This document shows, in pieces, positions 5,804-46,035 of a stretch of 64,000 nucleotides of DNA (positions within the stretch are counted from its first letter, which is position 1; every line of letters begins with the position of its first letter). This stretch comes from an uncultured Hyphomicrobiales bacterium (GTDB lineage: Bacteria > Bacteroidota > Ignavibacteria > Kapaibacteriales > UBA2268): positions 14,948 to 78,947 of the forward strand of contig CAZEMR010000005.1 in the NCBI GenBank assembly GCA_964513465.1. The letters are read 5' to 3'. The position numbers and the translations under genes are program-made. The notes beneath the pieces were generated by a model, which saw only the letters and a list, made by a program, of their open reading frames with translations, had not been told where the DNA came from and ran no database searches.

Positions 5804-7750
5804 ATGGCAATGAGGAAAATTATTTTAATCGCAGCATCACTGCTTTTGATCGCAAGCATGCTTTTAGCCCAGGAAAACGAGAGCCGAACAAGGCTGGGCG
5901 CATTTCTCGGCGGGAATTTTAATATGCACAGCCCCACGATGGAATATGATTATTCGCTCACAGGCGGCGGCAATTCGATATTCGATTTCGATCAGAACTC
6001 CACCAGTCTCGGCATTAACGGCGGGCTGATCGGCATTTTTCCGCTGAACCGCATACTCTCGATTTCGGGCCGTATCGGCTACCACGGCATGGGCGCCACG
6101 CTCGAAGGCCGCCAGGCGGGAATCGTTAATCCCGACGCCAACGAGATGGACGTCTCGCTTCATTATCTCGAAATTTCGCCTATTCTGCATTTTCATAATC
6201 TTATCCCCACAGAGGGCCTGTATTTCCTTGCCGGAATTGAAGTCGGAGTGCCGATTGTGGCCAATTACAACTGGCCTGTGGTATATGACGACGGCACCGG
6301 CGCCGCAACGCTCGAAACCATCGACTCTGATATCCCCGACAAAAGCGTCCGAGTGGCGTTTGCCCTCGGCGCGGGGTATGATATTCAATTAAGCAAAGAC
6401 ATGTTCCTGACGCCCGAGGTGTCCTTCCGGCTGCCGATGACCAATGTGTCGGCCAATGATAATTTTATGACATGGAACGTGCCGCAGCTCCGGCTTGGCG
6501 TTAATCTGACATTCTCCCTCGGCGGCGACGAAGAGGCAGCCGAATACGAAGATCATTTCCTCGAAGTCGGATTCGAAGACGTCCGCTATTACGACCAGAC
6601 GGGCGCTCCGCGCAAATTGGACAAAATCACGGTCGAGGAAGTCCAATACACCGAGATGTTTCCGATTGTGCCCTATGTATTCTGCGCAGAAAATCAGGCG
6701 AAGCCCGCACCTGCCACCCAGGATCTGGCCGCAGGCAGCGAAGCAGGCGAATTCACGATGAACAGCCTCAAACCCGACGCTCTCTCGATCAACCGCTCCA
6801 CGCTCGATATAATCGGCCGCAGGATGCAGGAAAACGAGCGCTACCAGGTGACCATCACCGGCACCCGCGACAGCAAAGCCGAACAGGGCAAGGAAGACCT
6901 TTCGTCGAACAGAGCGGAATTTGCAAAAAAATATCTTGTAGATAATTATAATATTATGCCCGGACGAATCACAACCAAAAGCCGCGGCCTGCCCGAAAAG
7001 GCATCCTCGACCCGCGTGCCCGACGGAGTCGCCGAAAACCGCCGGATCGAATTCACCAGCCCCAGCGGCGACCTTCTGAAGCCGATCACAATCGAGCGCG
7101 ACAAGCAGACAGTCGCCGAGCCGCGCATGATCGAATTCATCCCGTACACCGTCACCACCGACTTGGTCACAAGATGGCAGCTCGAAATAGTCCAGGCCGA
7201 CAAAACGATCCAGGACTACCGCGGCGCCGGATTCCCCGATACTCTGCAGTGGCTGATCATGCCCAACCAGCTTCAGCCCAGCCAGATACCGCTGGATTAT
7301 ATATTCACCGCCGAGACCGATTACGGAATGAAGGAAATGGCCACCGGCTCGATCCCGGTAGAATACTACTCGATTACACGCAAGAAAACCGAAGACCGCC
7401 CGGACAAAACGATATCGAAATTCAGCCTCATCGTGTTTGATTTCGACAGCCCGGAAGTATCCGCAAAGGATCGCGAAATTATTAACGACAACGTAATTCC
7501 CGCGATTAAATATAATTCAACGGTGCAGATATACGGATATACCGACCGCATCGGCGAGGATGAATACAACAAACGCCTTGCGAAATCGCGCGCCGAAAAC
7601 GTACGCAAAATACTCGAGAAAAGCGCCCCCACCGCGCAGTTCGAGGTCTATGGCGTTGGCGAGAACATCCTGCTCTACAACAACGAACTGCCCACCGGGC
7701 GCCACCTGTCGCGCACGGTGCAGATATACGTAATCACCCCAAAGGAATAG
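5804..7750 (+). CDS. OmpA family outer-membrane protein (N-terminal beta-barrel, central domain, C-terminal OmpA peptidoglycan-binding domain)
   Basis: Probable start MAMRKIILIAASLLLIASMLLAQ (ORF track Met at 5738 lies upstream). C-terminal OmpA_C signature (…NKRLAKSRAENVRKILEK…RHLSRTVQIYV). The TDRIGEDEYN segment aligns to the OmpA_C consensus region that usually reads GHTD. Confidence 0.75.
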   Translation: MAMRKIILIAASLLLIASMLLAQENESRTRLGAFLGGNFNMHSPTMEYDYSLTGGGNSIFDFDQNSTSLGINGGLIGIFPLNRILSISGRIGYHGMGATLEGRQAGIVNPDANEMDVSLHYLEISPILHFHNLIPTEGLYFLAGIEVGVPIVANYNWPVVYDDGTGAATLETIDSDIPDKSVRVAFALGAGYDIQLSKDMFLTPEVSFRLPMTNVSANDNFMTWNVPQLRLGVNLTFSLGGDEEAAEYEDHFLEVGFEDVRYYDQTGAPRKLDKITVEEVQYTEMFPIVPYVFCAENQAKPAPATQDLAAGSEAGEFTMNSLKPDALSINRSTLDIIGRRMQENERYQVTITGTRDSKAEQGKEDLSSNRAEFAKKYLVDNYNIMPGRITTKSRGLPEKASSTRVPDGVAENRRIEFTSPSGDLLKPITIERDKQTVAEPRMIEFIPYTVTTDLVTRWQLEIVQADKTIQDYRGAGFPDTLQWLIMPNQLQPSQIPLDYIFTAETDYGMKEMATGSIPVEYYSITRKKTEDRPDKTISKFSLIVFDFDSPEVSAKDREIINDNVIPAIKYNSTVQIYGYTDRIGEDEYNKRLAKSRAENVRKILEKSAPTAQFEVYGVGENILLYNNELPTGRHLSRTVQIYVITPKE

Positions 7751-21947: not shown

Positions 21948-22060
21948 TTTTTTGAGAAAATAATTTTTAAATTTAATAGTTTTATATATATAACACATGA
22001 TTAAGGCGGTTCGGGGAATCGCCTTTCATGTTTTACCCAAAAATTATCCCGGCAAACAAA

Positions 22061-23572
22061 ATGAAACAGTTTTTAATCATAAATCTCCTCGTAATTTTTA
22101 TGTTATCACCCCTTTTTTCACAGGATGCTCCCGGCCCGGACGCAATCAGCTATCGCCCGGCGGCTCTGGCCGGCGCTTTCTATCCGGCCGACCCGGATAC
22201 TCTCCGCAAACGAATCAATGAATATCTCGACCCCGACAAAGCCAAACGAATCCGCCCCGAAGCCGCAATCCACGGCATCGTAGTGCCCCATGCCGGCTAT
22301 GACTACAGCGGATGGGTGGCCGGCCGCGCCTTTCGCGAGATCGAAGGCCGCGGCTATGACGCAGTCGTCGTAATCGGGCCCAGCCACCGCGAGGTATTCG
22401 AAGGCGCGTCTATATACGACGGCGAGGCATACACCACCCCGCTCGGCAATGCGATGATCGACCAGGAGCTGGCCGATTCGATCGCCGCGGCGGATAATAC
22501 GATAATGCGTTCCCGCAAGGGCCACAGCCACGACCGCGGCAATTTCGAGAATTCGATCGAGGTGCAGATACCATTTCTGCAGGTCGTATTGCCGGATGTG
22601 CCGATTGTCCCCATCGCAATGGGAGCGCAGAATTACCACTCATCCGACGTACTGATGCAGGCAATCGTAAAGGCCGCCGAAGAGACCGGTCGCAGAATCC
22701 TGCTCGTCGGCAGCACCGATCTCTCGCATTATCATGATGTTACCGGCGCCCGCGAAATGGACATCCCGCTGGTGCAGACATTCGATAATTATGATTATAT
22801 GAAATTGTCATATAAATTATTTGCGCGCGAATGGGAGGCCTGCGGCGCCGCACCGATGATCGCGGTTATGCTCACCGCAGAGCAGCTTGGCGCAAACAAC
22901 GCAACCCCTTTGCTGTACGCAACATCAGCCGAAGCCCCCGGCGTAAAAACCAGCGACGACCGCGTCGTCGGCTATATGAGCGGCCTTTTGATGGAAGCGG
23001 ATTTTGACCCCTTCGGTAAATTCCCCGAACTCGACGAAGAGGAACGCGCGCGGCTGCTCGAAGCCGCAAAGGAATCCGTCAGCCGGAGCGTTGGCGCCGA
23101 CACCACAGCCGAACCCGGTGTGAGACTGGTCGATAAAGACCTGAGCGGACAATCTGCCGCATTCGTAACCCTTAAGAAAGAAGGCCAGTTGCGCGGGTGC
23201 ATGGGCCACACTATTGCCGAAAAGAATTTATTGATGGAGGTCGAGGAATCCGCACGGATGGCAGCCACCCGCGATATGCGATTCCGGCCGGTGGCCCCCG
23301 ACGAGCTCGATTCGCTCGATTTCGAAATCACCGTGCTGTCGCGCTTCAAACGCGTACTCGACACCGCTGAAGTCGAACCAGGCCGCGACGGCGTGTACCT
23401 CAGGCTTGGCCGCAGCGCAGGACTCTTCCTGCCGCAGGTGGCCACCGAACAGGGCTGGGACCGCGAGGCGCTGCTCGAAAACCTCGGCCAGAAGGCGGGG
23501 CTATCCCAAAACGCATACCAAATGCCCGAGGCCGAGCTGTTCATCTTCCGCTCTCTGATAATCGAGGAATAA
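22061..23572 (+). CDS. Fusion of MEMO1-like (AmmeMemoRadiSam system protein B) and AMMECR1 domains with predicted N-terminal signal peptide
   Basis: N-terminal MKQFLIINLLVIFMLSPLFSQ. Memo-like region (IVVPHAGYDYSGWVA…VVVIGPSHRE). C-terminal AMMECR1 region (AAFVTLKKEGQLRGCMG…GLFLPQVATEQGW). Confidence 0.75.
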   Translation: MKQFLIINLLVIFMLSPLFSQDAPGPDAISYRPAALAGAFYPADPDTLRKRINEYLDPDKAKRIRPEAAIHGIVVPHAGYDYSGWVAGRAFREIEGRGYDAVVVIGPSHREVFEGASIYDGEAYTTPLGNAMIDQELADSIAAADNTIMRSRKGHSHDRGNFENSIEVQIPFLQVVLPDVPIVPIAMGAQNYHSSDVLMQAIVKAAEETGRRILLVGSTDLSHYHDVTGAREMDIPLVQTFDNYDYMKLSYKLFAREWEACGAAPMIAVMLTAEQLGANNATPLLYATSAEAPGVKTSDDRVVGYMSGLLMEADFDPFGKFPELDEEERARLLEAAKESVSRSVGADTTAEPGVRLVDKDLSGQSAAFVTLKKEGQLRGCMGHTIAEKNLLMEVEESARMAATRDMRFRPVAPDELDSLDFEITVLSRFKRVLDTAEVEPGRDGVYLRLGRSAGLFLPQVATEQGWDREALLENLGQKAGLSQNAYQMPEAELFIFRSLIIEE

Positions 23573-23703
23573 TCCGGCAAAATATCTATATATGGGGTGG
23601 CTGCGAACCGGCCATCCTTTTTTTGGGAATGTAATATATATTTCTTGATGAGTTCAGTTGGATTCTATTTAAGAGTATACATTATTATTCAATAATAAAA
23701 AAA

Positions 23704-24429
23704 TCAAATTAATAATACCCAGAAAATATTCGAAATAATATTAATAAGAATCGAAATTAATATAGTAAACAAAATTGAAGCAAGAGGATACTTTTTGATA
23801 AACAGTTCGAACTTTAGAAGTCTTGGCTTTCTTATTTTCTTAAGCTCCCTTTCTAATTTATGGATATATTTTTCTGGTAGAGCTTTCATTCCAAAAAAAG
23901 CCTTACAAGAATCGCAAATTACAGGATTTTCAGTATTATATATAACATCGTATTTATAGCCATTCATGTCAAATAAACATCCCCGTGTATCTCTATGTAC
24001 AATACTGTAAACATCATCATTTGATATATCTTTAAGTGCCATTTTGATTAAGATTATTTCATAGATATTCTTTAATATAAAGTTTTCTATAGAAATATTA
24101 TTGATAAATAGTAAATGATCAATATCCGCTATAGACAGGCAAGCACAATTTTGTCCGGTTCTATGCAGATAGAAATTATCATCGAAACGATAATTCATAA
24201 TACCTAAAACAATATCAGAATATTTAATATTCTTCATGATATCCTCAGTCTCATCTCTTGAATAAACGATATCATATGTACCATAATCATTCGTTGGCCT
24301 GGGAAGATTATCAAGTGTTTCGATCTGATCGATTATAAACAATTTTGATTTGAATTTCTTAAGTTTTTTTAAATCAAGTTCATGCCGCAGATTTCCCAGA
24401 ATGACTATTTTAATTTTTGTTATTGACAT
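23704..24429 (-). CDS. AT-rich orphan hypothetical protein with C-terminal TM anchor (likely horizontally acquired)
   Basis: Codon usage is visibly far more AT-rich than the flanking genes. Soluble N-domain with Cys pairs (…GQNCAC…, …CDSCKAFF). C-terminal hydrophobic helix YPLASILFTILISILINIISNIFWVLLI. Confidence 0.55.
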   Translation of the reverse strand: MSITKIKIVILGNLRHELDLKKLKKFKSKLFIIDQIETLDNLPRPTNDYGTYDIVYSRDETEDIMKNIKYSDIVLGIMNYRFDDNFYLHRTGQNCACLSIADIDHLLFINNISIENFILKNIYEIILIKMALKDISNDDVYSIVHRDTRGCLFDMNGYKYDVIYNTENPVICDSCKAFFGMKALPEKYIHKLERELKKIRKPRLLKFELFIKKYPLASILFTILISILINIISNIFWVLLI

Positions 24430-24888
24430 TCCTTCCTCCTGTTAAGCTGTTTACGACTGATAATATGATTTTCGGTTAAAAATATTTTGGAATTAACTGG
24501 TAAAGATGATATTTAAATAAGATACGAAATATTATAAAAATATATTCGATAAATATTGAAATCTTGCTTTATTACAAAATATTAGAAATATGTGGTTTTA
24601 AAATTAGAAATGTCTTGCAAAGATTGCATGGACTGAGTGCTTGATTATTTCAATTACAGAAATTTCATGAAAAACTGGCGAACTTCCCGCCGGCACTCAC
24701 GAATTCCGCTGGAACTCCGCGGCCATAGCCCCCGGCGCATATAATTGCGTGATAACAGGCAGGGGAGATGTCAGCGCAGAAAGAATCATCATCACGAGGT
24801 GAGCCGATGCCCGCGTGAAATATTATCCGAAAAAATTCGTTTCTTAATAACTTATCGGATATGATTTCAAACGCTGACTTATATATTT

Positions 24889-26418
24889 ATGGCAAATTTC
24901 GAATCGAATGAATCCCCCAAAAAACGTCCCCGCATGAGGCGCCGGACGGTGGTCTCGCAGTCAAAAATCGATAATTTGAACATCCCGCTCGATGAGGATA
25001 TTTTCCGCCGGCTCGGGCGGCTGGCCGAGGACGCAGGCTATAGGATATACCTCGTCGGCGGCTATGTCCGCGACCATTTTCTGAAGCGCCCGAATACGGA
25101 TATCGACTGCTCGGTGATCGGCGATTCGATTGATTTTGCCAAACGCGCCGCAGAGCGGTTTAATTCCAAAGCCGTGCTCTACGAAAAATTCCGCACCGCG
25201 CTTGTGCCGGTCGGGGAGTACAAGATCGAATTCGTGGGCACCCGCAAGGAGGAATATCTGCCCGATTCGCGCAAGCCGATCGTCACGGTCGGCACGCTCG
25301 AGGACGACCTTCGCCGCCGCGATTTTACGGTCAATGCGATGGCCGTTTCGCTGAACGAAGACAATTTCGGAGAAGTGATCGACCTCTTCGGCGGGCTTCG
25401 CGACCTCGACGCAAAGCTATTGCGAACGCCGCTCGATCCGGTGGAAACATACAGCGACGACCCGCTGCGGATGATGCGGGCCGCAAGGTTTGCCGCGCAG
25501 CTCGGATTCACAGTCGATCCGCCTTCGTTCGACGCAATCGGGAGAATGGCCGAACGCATCAAAATCGTATCGCAGGAGCGGGTCACGGACGAAATGCTGA
25601 AAATCCTCGAATCGCCCAATCCGGCTCATGGCTTCCGCATACTTCACGCAAGCGGCCTGCTTAAATATATATTCCCCGAACTCGAAGAGCTTGCCGGGGT
25701 GGACATCGTCCAGGAAGACAGCAAAACATTCGGCCACAAAGACGTATTCAACCACACGCTGCAGGTGCTCGAGAACGTCGCAGGGCGTTCGGATAATCTC
25801 TGGCTGCGCTTCGCAGCTCTGGTGCACGATATTGCCAAGCCCCGCACCAAGAAATACGTGCCCGGCACCGGCTGGACATTCCACGGCCACGAAGAGCTCG
25901 GCGCGCGATATATGAAAAAATTATTCCGAAAAATGAAGCTTCCGATGGAGCATCTGCCGTACGTCGAAAAGCTCGTCCGGCTGCACCAGCGCCCGATGGC
26001 CCTCGTTGACGAGGGCGTTACCGATTCCGCTGTCCGCCGCCTGGCCGTTGCCGCCGACGATGCGCTCGACGACCTCTTTCTGCTATGCCGTTCGGACATC
26101 ACCACCGGCAACCCGCGGCTGACCGAGCAGTATATGAATAATTACGAAATCGTCTGGCATAAGGTGCTCGAGGTGCAGGAAAAAGACCGCCTGCGCGCAT
26201 TCCAGTCGCCCGTGCGTGGCGATGAGATCATGGAGGTGCTGGGTATCGAACCCTCGCGGATAGTCGGTGCAATCAAATCGGAGATAGAGGAGGCAATACT
26301 CGACGGCGTAATCCCGAACGAATACGATCCCGCCCGCGAATATTTTATGTCCCACAAGGACGAATGGCTGGAAAAATATCGAATGGAATTTAAGAATTTC
26401 CGGAAAAACCGGAATTAA
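24889..26418 (+). CDS. cca: CCA-adding tRNA nucleotidyltransferase / poly(A) polymerase family with HD domain
   Basis: Head domain GGYVRDHFL…DIDCSV…RRDFTVNAMAV. HD motif HDIAKP. Confidence 0.8.
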   Translation: MANFESNESPKKRPRMRRRTVVSQSKIDNLNIPLDEDIFRRLGRLAEDAGYRIYLVGGYVRDHFLKRPNTDIDCSVIGDSIDFAKRAAERFNSKAVLYEKFRTALVPVGEYKIEFVGTRKEEYLPDSRKPIVTVGTLEDDLRRRDFTVNAMAVSLNEDNFGEVIDLFGGLRDLDAKLLRTPLDPVETYSDDPLRMMRAARFAAQLGFTVDPPSFDAIGRMAERIKIVSQERVTDEMLKILESPNPAHGFRILHASGLLKYIFPELEELAGVDIVQEDSKTFGHKDVFNHTLQVLENVAGRSDNLWLRFAALVHDIAKPRTKKYVPGTGWTFHGHEELGARYMKKLFRKMKLPMEHLPYVEKLVRLHQRPMALVDEGVTDSAVRRLAVAADDALDDLFLLCRSDITTGNPRLTEQYMNNYEIVWHKVLEVQEKDRLRAFQSPVRGDEIMEVLGIEPSRIVGAIKSEIEEAILDGVIPNEYDPAREYFMSHKDEWLEKYRMEFKNFRKNRN

Positions 26419-42788: not shown

Positions 42789-42880
42789 TGTCTGAATTTA
42801 TTAATTTCTGAAAAAATCTTGTATTTTTGAAAATCTCAAAAAGCAAAAATATCAAATTGACAGCAAATGGAGAAATCCTA

Positions 42881-43771
42881 ATGAAATATATATTGCCCGA
42901 CCACGACGAGCCTCTATTCCGTCCGCCAAGCGAGGCCGCATCGCTGATATTCCAGATCACCCGCGGCTGCTCGTGGAATCGATGCGCCTTCTGCGAGATG
43001 TACACCACCAAACGGTTCAGCGTCCGCCCCGAAGAGGAAACGCTCGAGGAAATCCGCCGGACTGCCGAAATCGCCGCGGACGCCCGCAAGATATTTCTCG
43101 CCGATGGCGACGCGATGGCGATATCCACCCGCCGGCTAATAAATATATTGAACGAAATAAATAAATATTACCCAAAAGCGAGGCGAATATCGGCTTATGC
43201 ATCGCCGCGGAATCTGCGCGACAAATCCGTCGATGAGCTGATCGAAATCCGCCGCGCAGGGCTGGAGCTGATTTACGTCGGCATCGAATCCGGCGACGAC
43301 GAGGTGCTTCGTATGGCAGATAAGGGCGAGACATACCAATCCACAGCCGAATCCATGCTGAAGGCAAAGGAGGCCGATATAAAAATCTCCTCGATGATAA
43401 TTACCGGCCTCGGCGGCAGGCGATACTCCGAGCAACACGCCATAAACTCCGCAAGGCTGGTCAGCCGGATCGGGCCGGAATTCCTGTCGACTCTGGTGCT
43501 CAGCTTCCCGTTCGGCGTCGATCATTTTCGGGGGCGCTTCGATGGTGAATTCGAGGAAATGGGGATGATGGATTTATTGCGCGAAATGCGCTTATTTATC
43601 GAAAATCTGGAGCTTGCAGGCTCGATATTCCGCAGCGACCATGCCTCGAATTATTTATCGCTCCGTGGAATTTTATCTCGGGATAAGGCGCGATTGCTTG
43701 AAAAAATTGATTATGCGCTAAATAATCCCGGTTCGGCTGGTTTGCGCCCCGAATGGATGCGCGGACTTTGA
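42881..43771 (+). CDS. Radical SAM domain protein with noncanonical Cx4Cx2C cluster motif
   Basis: QITRGCSWNRCAFCEMY. Downstream glycine-rich SAM-binding segment (IFLADGDAM) and IYVGIESGDDEVL. Start at 42881 is preceded by GGAGA. The ORF track Met is at 42827. Confidence 0.7.
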   Translation: MKYILPDHDEPLFRPPSEAASLIFQITRGCSWNRCAFCEMYTTKRFSVRPEEETLEEIRRTAEIAADARKIFLADGDAMAISTRRLINILNEINKYYPKARRISAYASPRNLRDKSVDELIEIRRAGLELIYVGIESGDDEVLRMADKGETYQSTAESMLKAKEADIKISSMIITGLGGRRYSEQHAINSARLVSRIGPEFLSTLVLSFPFGVDHFRGRFDGEFEEMGMMDLLREMRLFIENLELAGSIFRSDHASNYLSLRGILSRDKARLLEKIDYALNNPGSAGLRPEWMRGL

Positions 43772-43818
43772 AATTAATTTAATATATTTGTTTTTTTATT
43801 AATTATTAAAAATAAATA

Positions 43819-44658
43819 ATGTCAAATCTTAAGATCGAAGATAAATTACTTCCGACTCTTGCCCAGCCGGTTTCTCAGCTCGTTACCGAAAATCAATTCA
43901 ACGAGCCGGTTTATGACGAATGGCTCGACGAAATCCGCGAAGCAAAACGAATGCACCGCAAGCAGTGGGAATTTATTTATATACTCCGCTCGCTGGATTC
44001 GCACGGCCAGCTTCGCACCGGGCAAAAGGGCATCGGATTCGGAGTGGGGTCGGAGCCGCTGCCGGCCGCAATGGCAAAACGCGGCTGCAAGGTAGTCGCC
44101 ACAGAGATCAACATCCAGAAGCGCCACGAGAAGGGCTGGGTGCGCAACCAGACAGTCGAATCGCAGCTTGCCAAACTCAACGAACGCGATATTTGCCCGC
44201 CGGATCAGTTCCGCGAAAACGTCAGCTACCGCGATGTGGATATGAACGACATCCCTGCCGATCTGCGCCGAGGGGAGTTCGATTTCGTGTGGTCTTGCTG
44301 CGCGCTGGAGCACCTCGGTACTATGGAGAAATGCACCGAATTCATATTCAAAAGCCTCGAATGCCTGAAGCCCGGCGGGGTGGCATCGCATACGACAGAA
44401 TATAATACCTTCGGTTTCTGGACGGTGCGGCATGGCTCGACCGTTTTTTTCCGTCGGAAGGAAATCGTCGATATCGCGCGCCGACTGACCGAATCGGGCC
44501 ACCATATAGAGCTTAATCTTAACAAAGGCCGCACCAGGCTCGACCGCCACTACGACTGGCCGCCATACAAACAGGACAACCACCTGAAGCTGATGGTATC
44601 CAAGCAATGGAAATTTATCGGCGCGACCTCGATCGGGCTGACTATTCGCAAAAAATAA
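43819..44658 (+). CDS. Putative class I SAM-dependent methyltransferase-like protein
   Basis: Motif I-like GIGFGVGSEPL and acidic loop KVVATEI. The opposite-strand ORF was judged to be a shadow. Confidence 0.5.
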   Translation: MSNLKIEDKLLPTLAQPVSQLVTENQFNEPVYDEWLDEIREAKRMHRKQWEFIYILRSLDSHGQLRTGQKGIGFGVGSEPLPAAMAKRGCKVVATEINIQKRHEKGWVRNQTVESQLAKLNERDICPPDQFRENVSYRDVDMNDIPADLRRGEFDFVWSCCALEHLGTMEKCTEFIFKSLECLKPGGVASHTTEYNTFGFWTVRHGSTVFFRRKEIVDIARRLTESGHHIELNLNKGRTRLDRHYDWPPYKQDNHLKLMVSKQWKFIGATSIGLTIRKK

Positions 44659-44708
44659 AGCTGCCCCGCGCATTGCAGAGCAGCCTTAAGCAATTCAATT
44701 ATATATAT

Positions 44709-45770
44709 TTATGCGATCGTTATGCTGGTGTCCAGATAGACATCCTGGATCGTATTAAGCAGCTTGACGCCATCGGCCATCGGGCGCTGGAATGCCTTGC
44801 GGCCGGAGATAAGCCCCATGCCGCCTGCGCGCTTGTTGATCACCGCGGTTTTGGCTGCTTCTGCGAAGTCGTTTTCGCCGGATGCCCCGCCGCTGTTGAT
44901 CAGTCCGCAGCGTCCCATATAGCAATTCGCCACCTGGTAGCGCGCAAGGTCGATCGGGTGGTCGCTAGTAAGATCGGTATACATCTTTTCGCTGAATTTG
45001 CCATATTTTTCGTCCTTATTTATCGCTTTGTAACCGCCATTGTTCTGCGGCAGCTTCTGCTTGACGATATCCGCCTGGAGCGTAACGCCGAGGTGGTTGG
45101 CCTGGCCGGTCAGGTCGGCGGATGTGTGGTAATCCTTGTCCTTTTTGAAAGCGGAATTGCGCAGGTAGCACCACAGCACTGTCGCCATGCCCAGCTCGTG
45201 CGCATACTGGAAAGCTTCTGCGATTTCGACGATCTGCGGGTTGCTGCCGTCGCTGCCGAAGTAGATTGTTGCCCCCACTGCGGCCGCGCCCATGTCGTAG
45301 GCCTCCTCGATATTTCCGAACATAATCTGGTCGTAATCATTCGGATAGGAGAGCATTTCGTTGTGGTTGACCTTTACGAGGAAAGGAATCTTGTGGGCAT
45401 ATTTGCGCGACATAATGCCGAGCACGCCAAAAGTCGAAGCCACTGCATTGCAGCCGCCTTCGATAGCAAGCTCGATAATTTTTTCCGGATCGAAATAAGC
45501 CGGATTGGGCGCAAAGCTGGCGCCGGCGGAATGCTCGATGCCCTGGTCGACGGGCAGGATCGAGAGATAGCCCGAGCCGCCGAGCCGTCCGTTGTTGAAC
45601 ATCCACTGCAGATTGCCGAGCACGCGGTTGTTGCGGTCGGAATTCATCCAGATGCGGTCGACGAAGTCGTGACCGGGCTTATGAAGCTGTTCTTTAGAAA
45701 TTTTGGGATTATCAAATCCGAGCAAATATTCAGTCTCATTGCCGAGAAGCTGTTGAATATCAGTACTCAT
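44709..45770 (-). CDS. Class I fructose-bisphosphate aldolase (FbaB/DhnA type)
   Basis: …[46 protein letters not shown]… is typical of class I FBA. About 350 aa. Confidence 0.75.
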
Positions 45771-46035
45771 AAATACCTCCGGTTAGGGTTAAAAATATAT
45801 AAAAGAAGCGAGAGTGACTGGATTAGCCTGATGCAAAGATAACATTAAAACATAAAAAAAAATTTGCTAAAAGCAAAAAAAACATCCATAAAAATGCTAT
45901 TAAATGCGGAATGACACGGAAGATTCTACTCAATTATATAAATATTTTTCAACCAATTTGCTTCGTTTCTACAAAATTCTCTTTAAATTATTTATATTGA
46001 ATTAACCTAATTGCAATTAACGTATCGGAGAAATT

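Follow-up and report, generated by a model that had tools for sequence, protein, structure and literature searches.

A 64-kb stretch of DNA (64,000 nucleotides, hereafter the window) from an uncultured bacterium that GTDB assigns to the Kapaibacteriales (Ignavibacteria) carries, at 22061-23572 on the forward strand and including the stop codon, a coding sequence for a 503-residue precursor in which a Memo domain is fused to an AMMECR1 domain. These are components B and A, respectively, of the AmmeMemoRadiSam system, whose third component is a radical S-adenosylmethionine (SAM) enzyme of the TIGR04337 family. The protein is probably a periplasmic two-domain enzyme, exported through the general secretory (Sec) pathway and processed by signal peptidase I, and it would belong to a fused B/A branch of the system whose gene is detached from the radical SAM operon in the clade of the window. 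Apparently, it represents a form of a known, as yet uncharacterised system that is exported and encoded outside the operon, and the extracytoplasmic location would be a property of the whole fused branch and not a mark of partner loss.

An original prediction, made from the sequence without database searches, had described the gene as a B-A fusion, and both system-specific models indeed score above their curated cut-offs on a single polypeptide. The Memo domain (TIGR04336) covers residues 32-308 (22154-22984, forward strand) with 240 bits against a cut-off of 26, and the AMMECR1 domain (TIGR04335) covers residues 331-498 (23051-23554, forward strand) with 149 bits against a cut-off of 99. The Pfam scores are 175 bits for Memo (PF01875) and 151 bits for AMMECR1 (PF01871). 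In the AlphaFold model, obtained with an alignment of 44 relatives (predicted local distance difference test, pLDDT, 92.7; predicted template modelling score, pTM, 0.90), the protein forms one two-domain body, with the Memo domain predicted to pack rigidly against the AMMECR1 domain. Foldseek matched the model to human MEMO1 (template modelling score 0.78-0.80) and to archaeal AMMECR1 homologues (up to 0.81, for 1VAJ), and no solved structure of a Memo-AMMECR1 fusion was among its matches. Human MEMO1 (PDB 3BCZ; 7KQ8, iron-bound; 7L5C, copper-bound) shares the fold and the equivalents of the metal-binding histidines, but it has about 24% identity to the fusion, resides in the cytosol and lacks both a fused AMMECR1 domain and a radical SAM partner. 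The archaeal homologues (PDB 1ZQ7, 1WSC and 1VAJ) have the same AMMECR1 domain (E-values of 1e-14 to 1e-18) with an LRGC(I/M)G motif, although they are stand-alone, cytoplasmic proteins.

The residues expected of both active sites are present. Memo residues H77, H109, D220, H223 and C261 and AMMECR1 residues R378 and G382 are invariant in the 44 relatives, and C380, which completes the conserved LRGCMG motif with R378 and G382, shows conservation of at least 90%. H77 and H109 align with the metal-binding His49 and His81 of human MEMO1, and D220, H223 and C261 are presumably equivalent to the Asp, His and Cys positions of the MEMO1 motifs. The His/His/Asp/His/Cys metal site of the Memo domain is complete and the Arg-x-Cys motif of AMMECR1 intact. 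Conservation at a level of 90% or more in both the clade of the window and the radical-SAM-linked fusions was found at 59 positions. We also searched for residues conserved solely in the radical-SAM-linked fusions, as a modification target lost in the clade should be, and found only conservative or peripheral differences. Because all catalytic positions are conserved, the chemistry of the clade fusion is probably the same as that of the radical-SAM-linked versions.

The evidence for export is comparative, drawn from homologues, from the relative L090 (74% identical) and from other leaders in the window. As first described, the N-terminus reads MKQFLIINLLVIFMLSPLFS and then QDAPG. The predicted signal peptide corresponds to residues 1-20 (MKQFLIINLLVIFMLSPLFS; 22061-22120, forward strand), with cleavage before Gln21. 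The leader consists of Met-Lys, then QFLIINLLVIFML, then SPLFS, with Gln at position +1, and it follows the Bacteroidota-type Q-rule pattern of Sec/signal peptidase I leaders, in which a basic residue near the N-terminus precedes a hydrophobic core and the cleavage site has small residues at -3 and -1 and Gln at +1. The Q-rule for signal peptidase I substrates has a Q-value of 77% in Ignavibacterium album (PMC5837995). The leader carries a single Lys and lacks the RR/KR-x-F-L-K motif that would qualify it as a substrate of twin-arginine translocation (Tat).

Among the 120 best of 7,925 database matches, a full leader, with a basic residue, a hydrophobic core and a small residue, is annotated in 76, and approximately 35 more have their start in the last part of the leader and retain a ...SQD or ...AQD remnant, leaving only a handful that look truly leaderless. 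The leader sequences are divergent, and 50 of the 76 close with a small residue and then Gln, as do 14 of 25 leader-like open reading frames (ORFs) elsewhere in the window. The leader region of L090 (MKKLLIIIAALTMFSSLFSQDAPGP) keeps its reading frame across an indel of one codon, and its replacements are hydrophobic. Regarding other phyla, 51 of 65 full fusions from the genome-scan loci have leaders, either signal peptidase I-like or lipobox-like (LxGC) and unrelated in sequence. From these comparisons, export appears to be conserved in fusions across phyla, whereas the signals differ in type. In the AlphaFold model the leader is a detached helix (residues 2-15), and the pLDDT falls below 50 at residues 17-20, where cleavage is predicted. 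We regard the N-terminal leader as very probably an authentic export signal, and the Sec-type signal peptide first proposed is backed by the homologues, by L090, by the other leaders in the window and by the Q-rule. On the question, raised with the original prediction, of whether fused B-A proteins consistently carry leaders, most of those surveyed do: 76 of the 120 homologues, with approximately 35 more starting inside the leader, and 51 of the 65 fusions of other phyla.

The ORF ends at 23572 on the forward strand and has three in-frame ATG codons, at 22028, 22061 and 22100. The first (22028-22030, forward strand) was ruled out as the start, as a 2-nt indel places it out of frame in L090. 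The second is favoured because the codons 5' of Met14 keep their frame in L090 and the equivalent of the ATG at 22028 does not; comparison thus supports 22061, the start on which the original prediction depended. The third (22100-22102, forward strand) is the codon of Met14, the first residue of P0001, the NCBI record of the identical protein ('Candidatus Kapaibacterium sp.', 490 amino acids); it lies within the hydrophobic stretch, and a start there would cut through the leader. Public gene calls often start at a Met within the leader (P0001, P0002, P0012-P0015, P0028 and others), and it is for this reason that automated annotation hides the export signal of the fusion family.

Compared with the AmmeMemoRadiSam three-gene system (TIGR04335, TIGR04336 and TIGR04337), the window protein has the A and B components with their catalytic motifs, but it departs from the textbook layout in the fusion of A and B, in the export leader and in the lack of a TIGR04337 gene in the window or near the clade genes. 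The fusion itself is not unusual. Memo-AMMECR1 fusions are widespread in bacteria, and the JGI already names some of the homologues 'protein B/protein A'. All 120 best homologues are fusions of the two domains, with 450-560 amino acids. A scan of a genome collection gave at least 599 relatives (599 of the 600 matches listed), of which 80 loci were kept, about 65 of them with full fusions, from Acidobacteria, Zixibacteria, delta-proteobacteria, Omnitrophota, Planctomycetes, Latescibacteria, KSB1, Bacteroidales and others. The original statement that the two are normally separate genes was consequently too strong. The matches listed from the genome collection are mostly from distant phyla, and the clade loci came from eight exact-protein look-ups; a metagenome scan for close relatives gave a single partial locus with no gene context.

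Periplasmic export had also been taken, in the original prediction, as an argument for a partner-independent function. This argument does not survive, because leader-bearing fusions in other phyla normally retain a nearby TIGR04337 gene, whose product is often itself of export type. TIGR04337 genes were searched for with a profile seeded with the validated radical SAM sequence of locus L027 (E<=1e-5), which detected TIGR04337-like ORFs at 38 of the 80 loci. A TIGR04337 gene lies within 10 kb of 34 of the 51 leader-bearing fusions of other phyla, often directly upstream. Where at least 3 kb is available on both sides (29 leader-bearing fusions), the gene is directly adjacent on the same strand in 12 cases and within 10 kb in eight more, and nine have no radical SAM gene nearby. 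The exported fusion shares an operon with a TIGR04337 radical SAM enzyme in Acidobacteria, Planctomycetes, Omnitrophota, Bacteroidales, KSB1 and others. In the exported B/A operons (for instance L088, L047, L018 and L004), a TIGR04337 gene with a twin-arginine-like N-terminus is followed by the leader-bearing Memo-AMMECR1 gene, with or without a gene for a multi-transmembrane spermidine-synthase-like protein; L088, from a 5.5-Mb genome, has its exported fusion and TIGR04337 gene in the same arrangement as the other linked loci. The fusions of these operons have the same architecture, kind of leader and conserved residues as the window fusion, with 35-41% identity. In locus L027 (8933-11377, forward strand), a single frame encodes a triple fusion of TIGR04337 radical SAM, Memo and AMMECR1 domains, with no leader; its N-terminal 340 residues score 350 bits on TIGR04337, and it suggests physical cooperation of the three components.

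Radical SAM maturases can also work before export. The anaerobic sulfatase-maturating enzyme (anSME), a cytoplasmic radical SAM protein, acts on sulfatases that are later exported by the Sec pathway, so that a protein destined for export can still have a radical SAM partner. The case is an analogy only, since the families are unrelated to Memo-AMMECR1, and we know of no modification of Memo-AMMECR1.

The radical SAM proteins themselves often appear to be exported. Of the 34 encoded near leader-bearing fusions, 23 have an export-type N-terminal extension ahead of the first Cys cluster, compared with none of the four partners of leaderless fusions (Fisher p=0.018). By class, 17-18 of the 34 have a twin-arginine-like motif with a mildly hydrophobic stretch (for instance RRTFIK, RRGFLK and RRQFLQ), six are Sec/transmembrane-like and 11 have no extension. 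The twin-arginine-like motif, (R/K)R-x-F-(L/I)-K, was observed in the partners of L003, L004, L005, L024, L029, L032, L044, L045, L047, L052, L053, L058, L061, L064, L072, L074, L077 and L088, and in the database set P0121-P0240. This set holds the 120 best of at least 8000 matches to a profile biased towards the Fibrobacteres-Chlorobi-Bacteroidetes (FCB) group; 103 of the 120 fit the motif and the remainder are near variants. In an alignment of 55 of these radical SAM homologues, R5 and F7 of the motif are invariant and K9 nearly so. Six full-length examples score 373-395 bits on TIGR04337 and leave 35-78 N-terminal residues uncovered. Together, these N-termini suggest Tat export of the radical SAM partner.

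Other members of these operons were also recorded. A multi-transmembrane protein of approximately 700-850 amino acids with a spermidine-synthase-like domain adjoins the radical SAM/Memo-AMMECR1 pair in 24-25 loci (L088, 11535-13949, reverse strand; L077, 1945-4443, forward strand; L032, 11450-13627, forward strand; and 21 others), and the one in L088 matches NF037959, 'fused MFS/spermidine synthase', with 67 bits. A DUF362-type protein (PF04015 in L088) with the twin-arginine leader SRRDFLK is encoded upstream of the radical SAM gene in six to seven loci (L004, 7581-8648, forward strand; L005, L022, L047, L061 and L088). In four Prevotella loci (L048, L057, L063 and L070) the fusion has a lipoprotein-like leader and the radical SAM protein encoded immediately downstream is leaderless and shorter (about 290 amino acids), so that the two are predicted to lie in different compartments.

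The clade of the window has a different gene context. It is represented by seven Kapabacteria/Ignavibacteria-like loci (L001, L082, L083, L084, L086, L087 and L090), with flanks of up to 10 kb. No TIGR04337 gene was found near the fusion in any of the seven (flanks up to about 10 kb), and the L027-seeded profile found no TIGR04337-type ORF anywhere in the 64-kb window, which bears out the original observation that no AmmeMemoRadiSam-type radical SAM gene adjoins the fusion. The difference between 0 of 7 clade loci and 34 of 51 loci of other phyla gives a Fisher p of 0.001, uncorrected for relatedness. The radical SAM genes of L087 are HydG and HydE, beside HydF. Neither the multi-transmembrane spermidine-synthase-like neighbour nor the DUF362 neighbour with its Tat leader was found in the window or in the clade loci. 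Likewise, none of the 120 best radical SAM homologues retrieved with the FCB-biased profile is named as Ignavibacteria or Kapabacteria, all being Bacteroidia- or KSB1-like. As predicted, the sole radical SAM gene of the window (42827-43771, forward strand) is of another subfamily and lies 19.3 kb downstream of the fusion; it is a generic PF04055 match (70 bits) and not TIGR04337.

Instead of a radical SAM gene, the clade has other conserved neighbours. A gene for a CCA-adding enzyme (PolyA_pol-HD type; 24889-26418, forward strand, in the window) lies 3' of the fusion gene on the same strand in each clade member inspected, and in five relatives (L082-L084, L086 and L087) it does so at a distance of -8 to +84 bp; the overlap of 8 bp is in L084. 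Split transketolase genes upstream of the fusion gene are also conserved in the clade. A functional link between the fusion and the CCA-adding enzyme was considered and rejected, and the adjacency is taken as clade synteny because it occurs in none of the 80 wider loci. The fusion gene of the clade would have left the TIGR04337 operon, and it now stands between two terminator-like hairpins in transketolase/CCA-adding-enzyme synteny.

Regarding the partner, the reading that we consider slightly on the probable side is that the system is complete, with a TIGR04337 enzyme that is encoded elsewhere in the genome and either matures the fusion in the cytoplasm before Sec export or is itself exported to the periplasm. 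Many phyla in which exported fusions share an operon with TIGR04337 agree with this, as do the triple fusion of L027, which argues for direct physical cooperation, the occurrence of both leaderless and leader-bearing radical SAM proteins beside exported fusions, and the identical conservation of linked and unlinked groups. Against it stand the lack of such a gene in the seven clade loci and in the window, and the lack of any recognisable clade member among the top 120 radical SAM homologues.

The same absences favour a second, less probable reading, in which the exported Memo-AMMECR1 is self-sufficient in the periplasm and the clade lost TIGR04337 as eukaryotes did. Eukaryotes have Memo and AMMECR1 without a TIGR04337-type radical SAM enzyme, and the spermidine-synthase-like and DUF362 neighbours are missing from the clade loci together with the radical SAM gene; the lack of a clade-named entry among the best 120 of at least 8000 homologues is a weak negative in its favour. 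On the other hand, the absence is seen at the local scale only, and an unlinked arrangement is common elsewhere (9 of the 29 well-flanked fusions of other phyla). Moreover, the bit scores of the window protein on the system-specific TIGR04335 and TIGR04336 models clearly exceed the cut-offs, and no conserved position is relaxed in comparison with the radical-SAM-linked relatives.

Several observations weigh against the interpretation of the window protein as an exported, processed member of a system that is extracytoplasmic as a whole. In the source genome, the TIGR04337 search covered the 64-kb window only. We know of no biochemical function for the components of the AmmeMemoRadiSam system. 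Eleven of the 34 radical SAM partners beside exported fusions are leaderless, and co-localisation is consequently not universal. Tat profiles are weak on the partners (TIGR01409 at its cut-off in 1 of 10; PF10518 in 4 of 55, E<=0.1), and many Bacteroidota partner sequences have KR and not RR; because these profiles are seldom significant, the twin-arginine assignment is based on motif conservation. Finally, an uncleaved signal anchor fits most of the leader data equally well. In such a case the enzyme would remain attached to the inner membrane, on its outer side, and would not be free in the periplasm, as might be suspected from the hydrophobic core of 13-14 residues modelled as a helix, from the multi-transmembrane protein that is the recurrent operon partner, and from the lipobox-type leaders of other phyla, where membrane attachment may be what matters functionally. 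We nevertheless regard a signal anchor as unlikely, as a conserved small residue and Gln follow the hydrophobic core in 50 of 76 leaders and other secreted proteins of the window share this ending, which marks signal peptidase I cleavage under the Q-rule. Least of all do we expect that the hydrophobic N-terminus is untranslated or no export signal and the protein a cytoplasmic one starting at Met14: the NCBI pipeline chose this start and about 35 of the 120 homologues are annotated with comparably short N-termini, but the short versions all begin within the end of the leader and keep its ...SQD or ...AQD remnant, the upstream codons of L090 stay in frame through a whole-codon indel and hydrophobic substitutions, complete unrelated leaders occur in 76 of the 120 homologues and 51 of the 65 fusions of other phyla, and the Memo domain begins only at residue 32.

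For a fusion that is exported and processed, cleavage at ...LFS/QDAPG would leave Gln at the mature N-terminus, which in this lineage would probably be cyclised to pyroglutamate. The two active sites, Memo and AMMECR1, may work as one unit, and the protein would be a metal-dependent enzyme, probably with redox chemistry, whose substrate lies in the cell envelope.

The remaining features of the window concern the surroundings of the gene and the unrelated radical SAM locus. A terminator-like hairpin in the gap between the gene for the C-terminal transketolase subunit and the fusion gene (22003-22025, forward strand) has a 10-bp stem and a T-rich tail, and lies 35 nt before the fusion start; the stem is conserved in L090 (counterpart at approximately 5905-5930), where the loop differs. 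This hairpin may terminate transketolase transcription or belong to a 5' leader, and an Rfam scan of the whole window, including this hairpin, gave no match. The second hairpin, like an intrinsic terminator and with a T-run, lies directly 3' of the fusion gene (23594-23628, forward strand). An island of 1.2 kb with 26-28% G+C (23620-24800; flanks 55-60%) separates the fusion gene from the CCA-adding-enzyme gene in the window. It contains an orphan ORF (23704-24429, reverse strand) of 241 amino acids, whose C-terminus is hydrophobic and which matches neither Pfam nor NCBIfam; this ORF is also present in L001. The radical SAM protein encoded at 42827-43771 has 314 amino acids, weakly resembles B12-type radical SAM families, all far under their cut-offs, and has no canonical CxxxCxxC detected by a regular-expression search. 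Its gene is followed by genes for a class I methyltransferase (43819-44658) and for a 411-residue protein with no family match, and this cluster (42827-45842) is unrelated to the fusion gene.

Both Memo and AMMECR1, which archaea and humans alike have conserved, are associated with human disease, and to our knowledge neither has an assigned biochemical reaction. Memo has reportedly been linked to nucleotide-base and isoprenoid modification in a 2019 study by Burroughs and colleagues in J Biol Chem. No functional study of the AmmeMemoRadiSam system was found in the literature searched. AMMECR1 homologues have been tied by gene context to RNA (base) modification (PMC4075521). If the large fused branch is exported, its substrate would lie in the cell envelope, which conflicts with the role proposed in RNA modification. 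An enzyme predicted to be exported hardly fits that role, and an envelope lipid or isoprenoid would suit it better than RNA.

Of the by-products of the analysis, the most interesting is that in other phyla the whole system appears to exist in an extracytoplasmic form. In a speculative and rather doubtful extension of this picture, a folded radical SAM enzyme exported by Tat would act in the periplasm or at the membrane with a Sec-exported or lipoprotein Memo-AMMECR1 and the multi-transmembrane spermidine-synthase-like protein, and the clade of the window would have kept only a self-sufficient periplasmic Memo-AMMECR1 metalloenzyme. We know of no described radical SAM enzyme that works beyond the cytoplasm with its SAM pool and reductants, and if the Tat-type leader of the partner is confirmed, radical SAM chemistry in such a location would surprise enzymologists. 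A clade in which the exported fusion stands alone would be a natural experiment on the need of Memo-AMMECR1 for a radical SAM enzyme.

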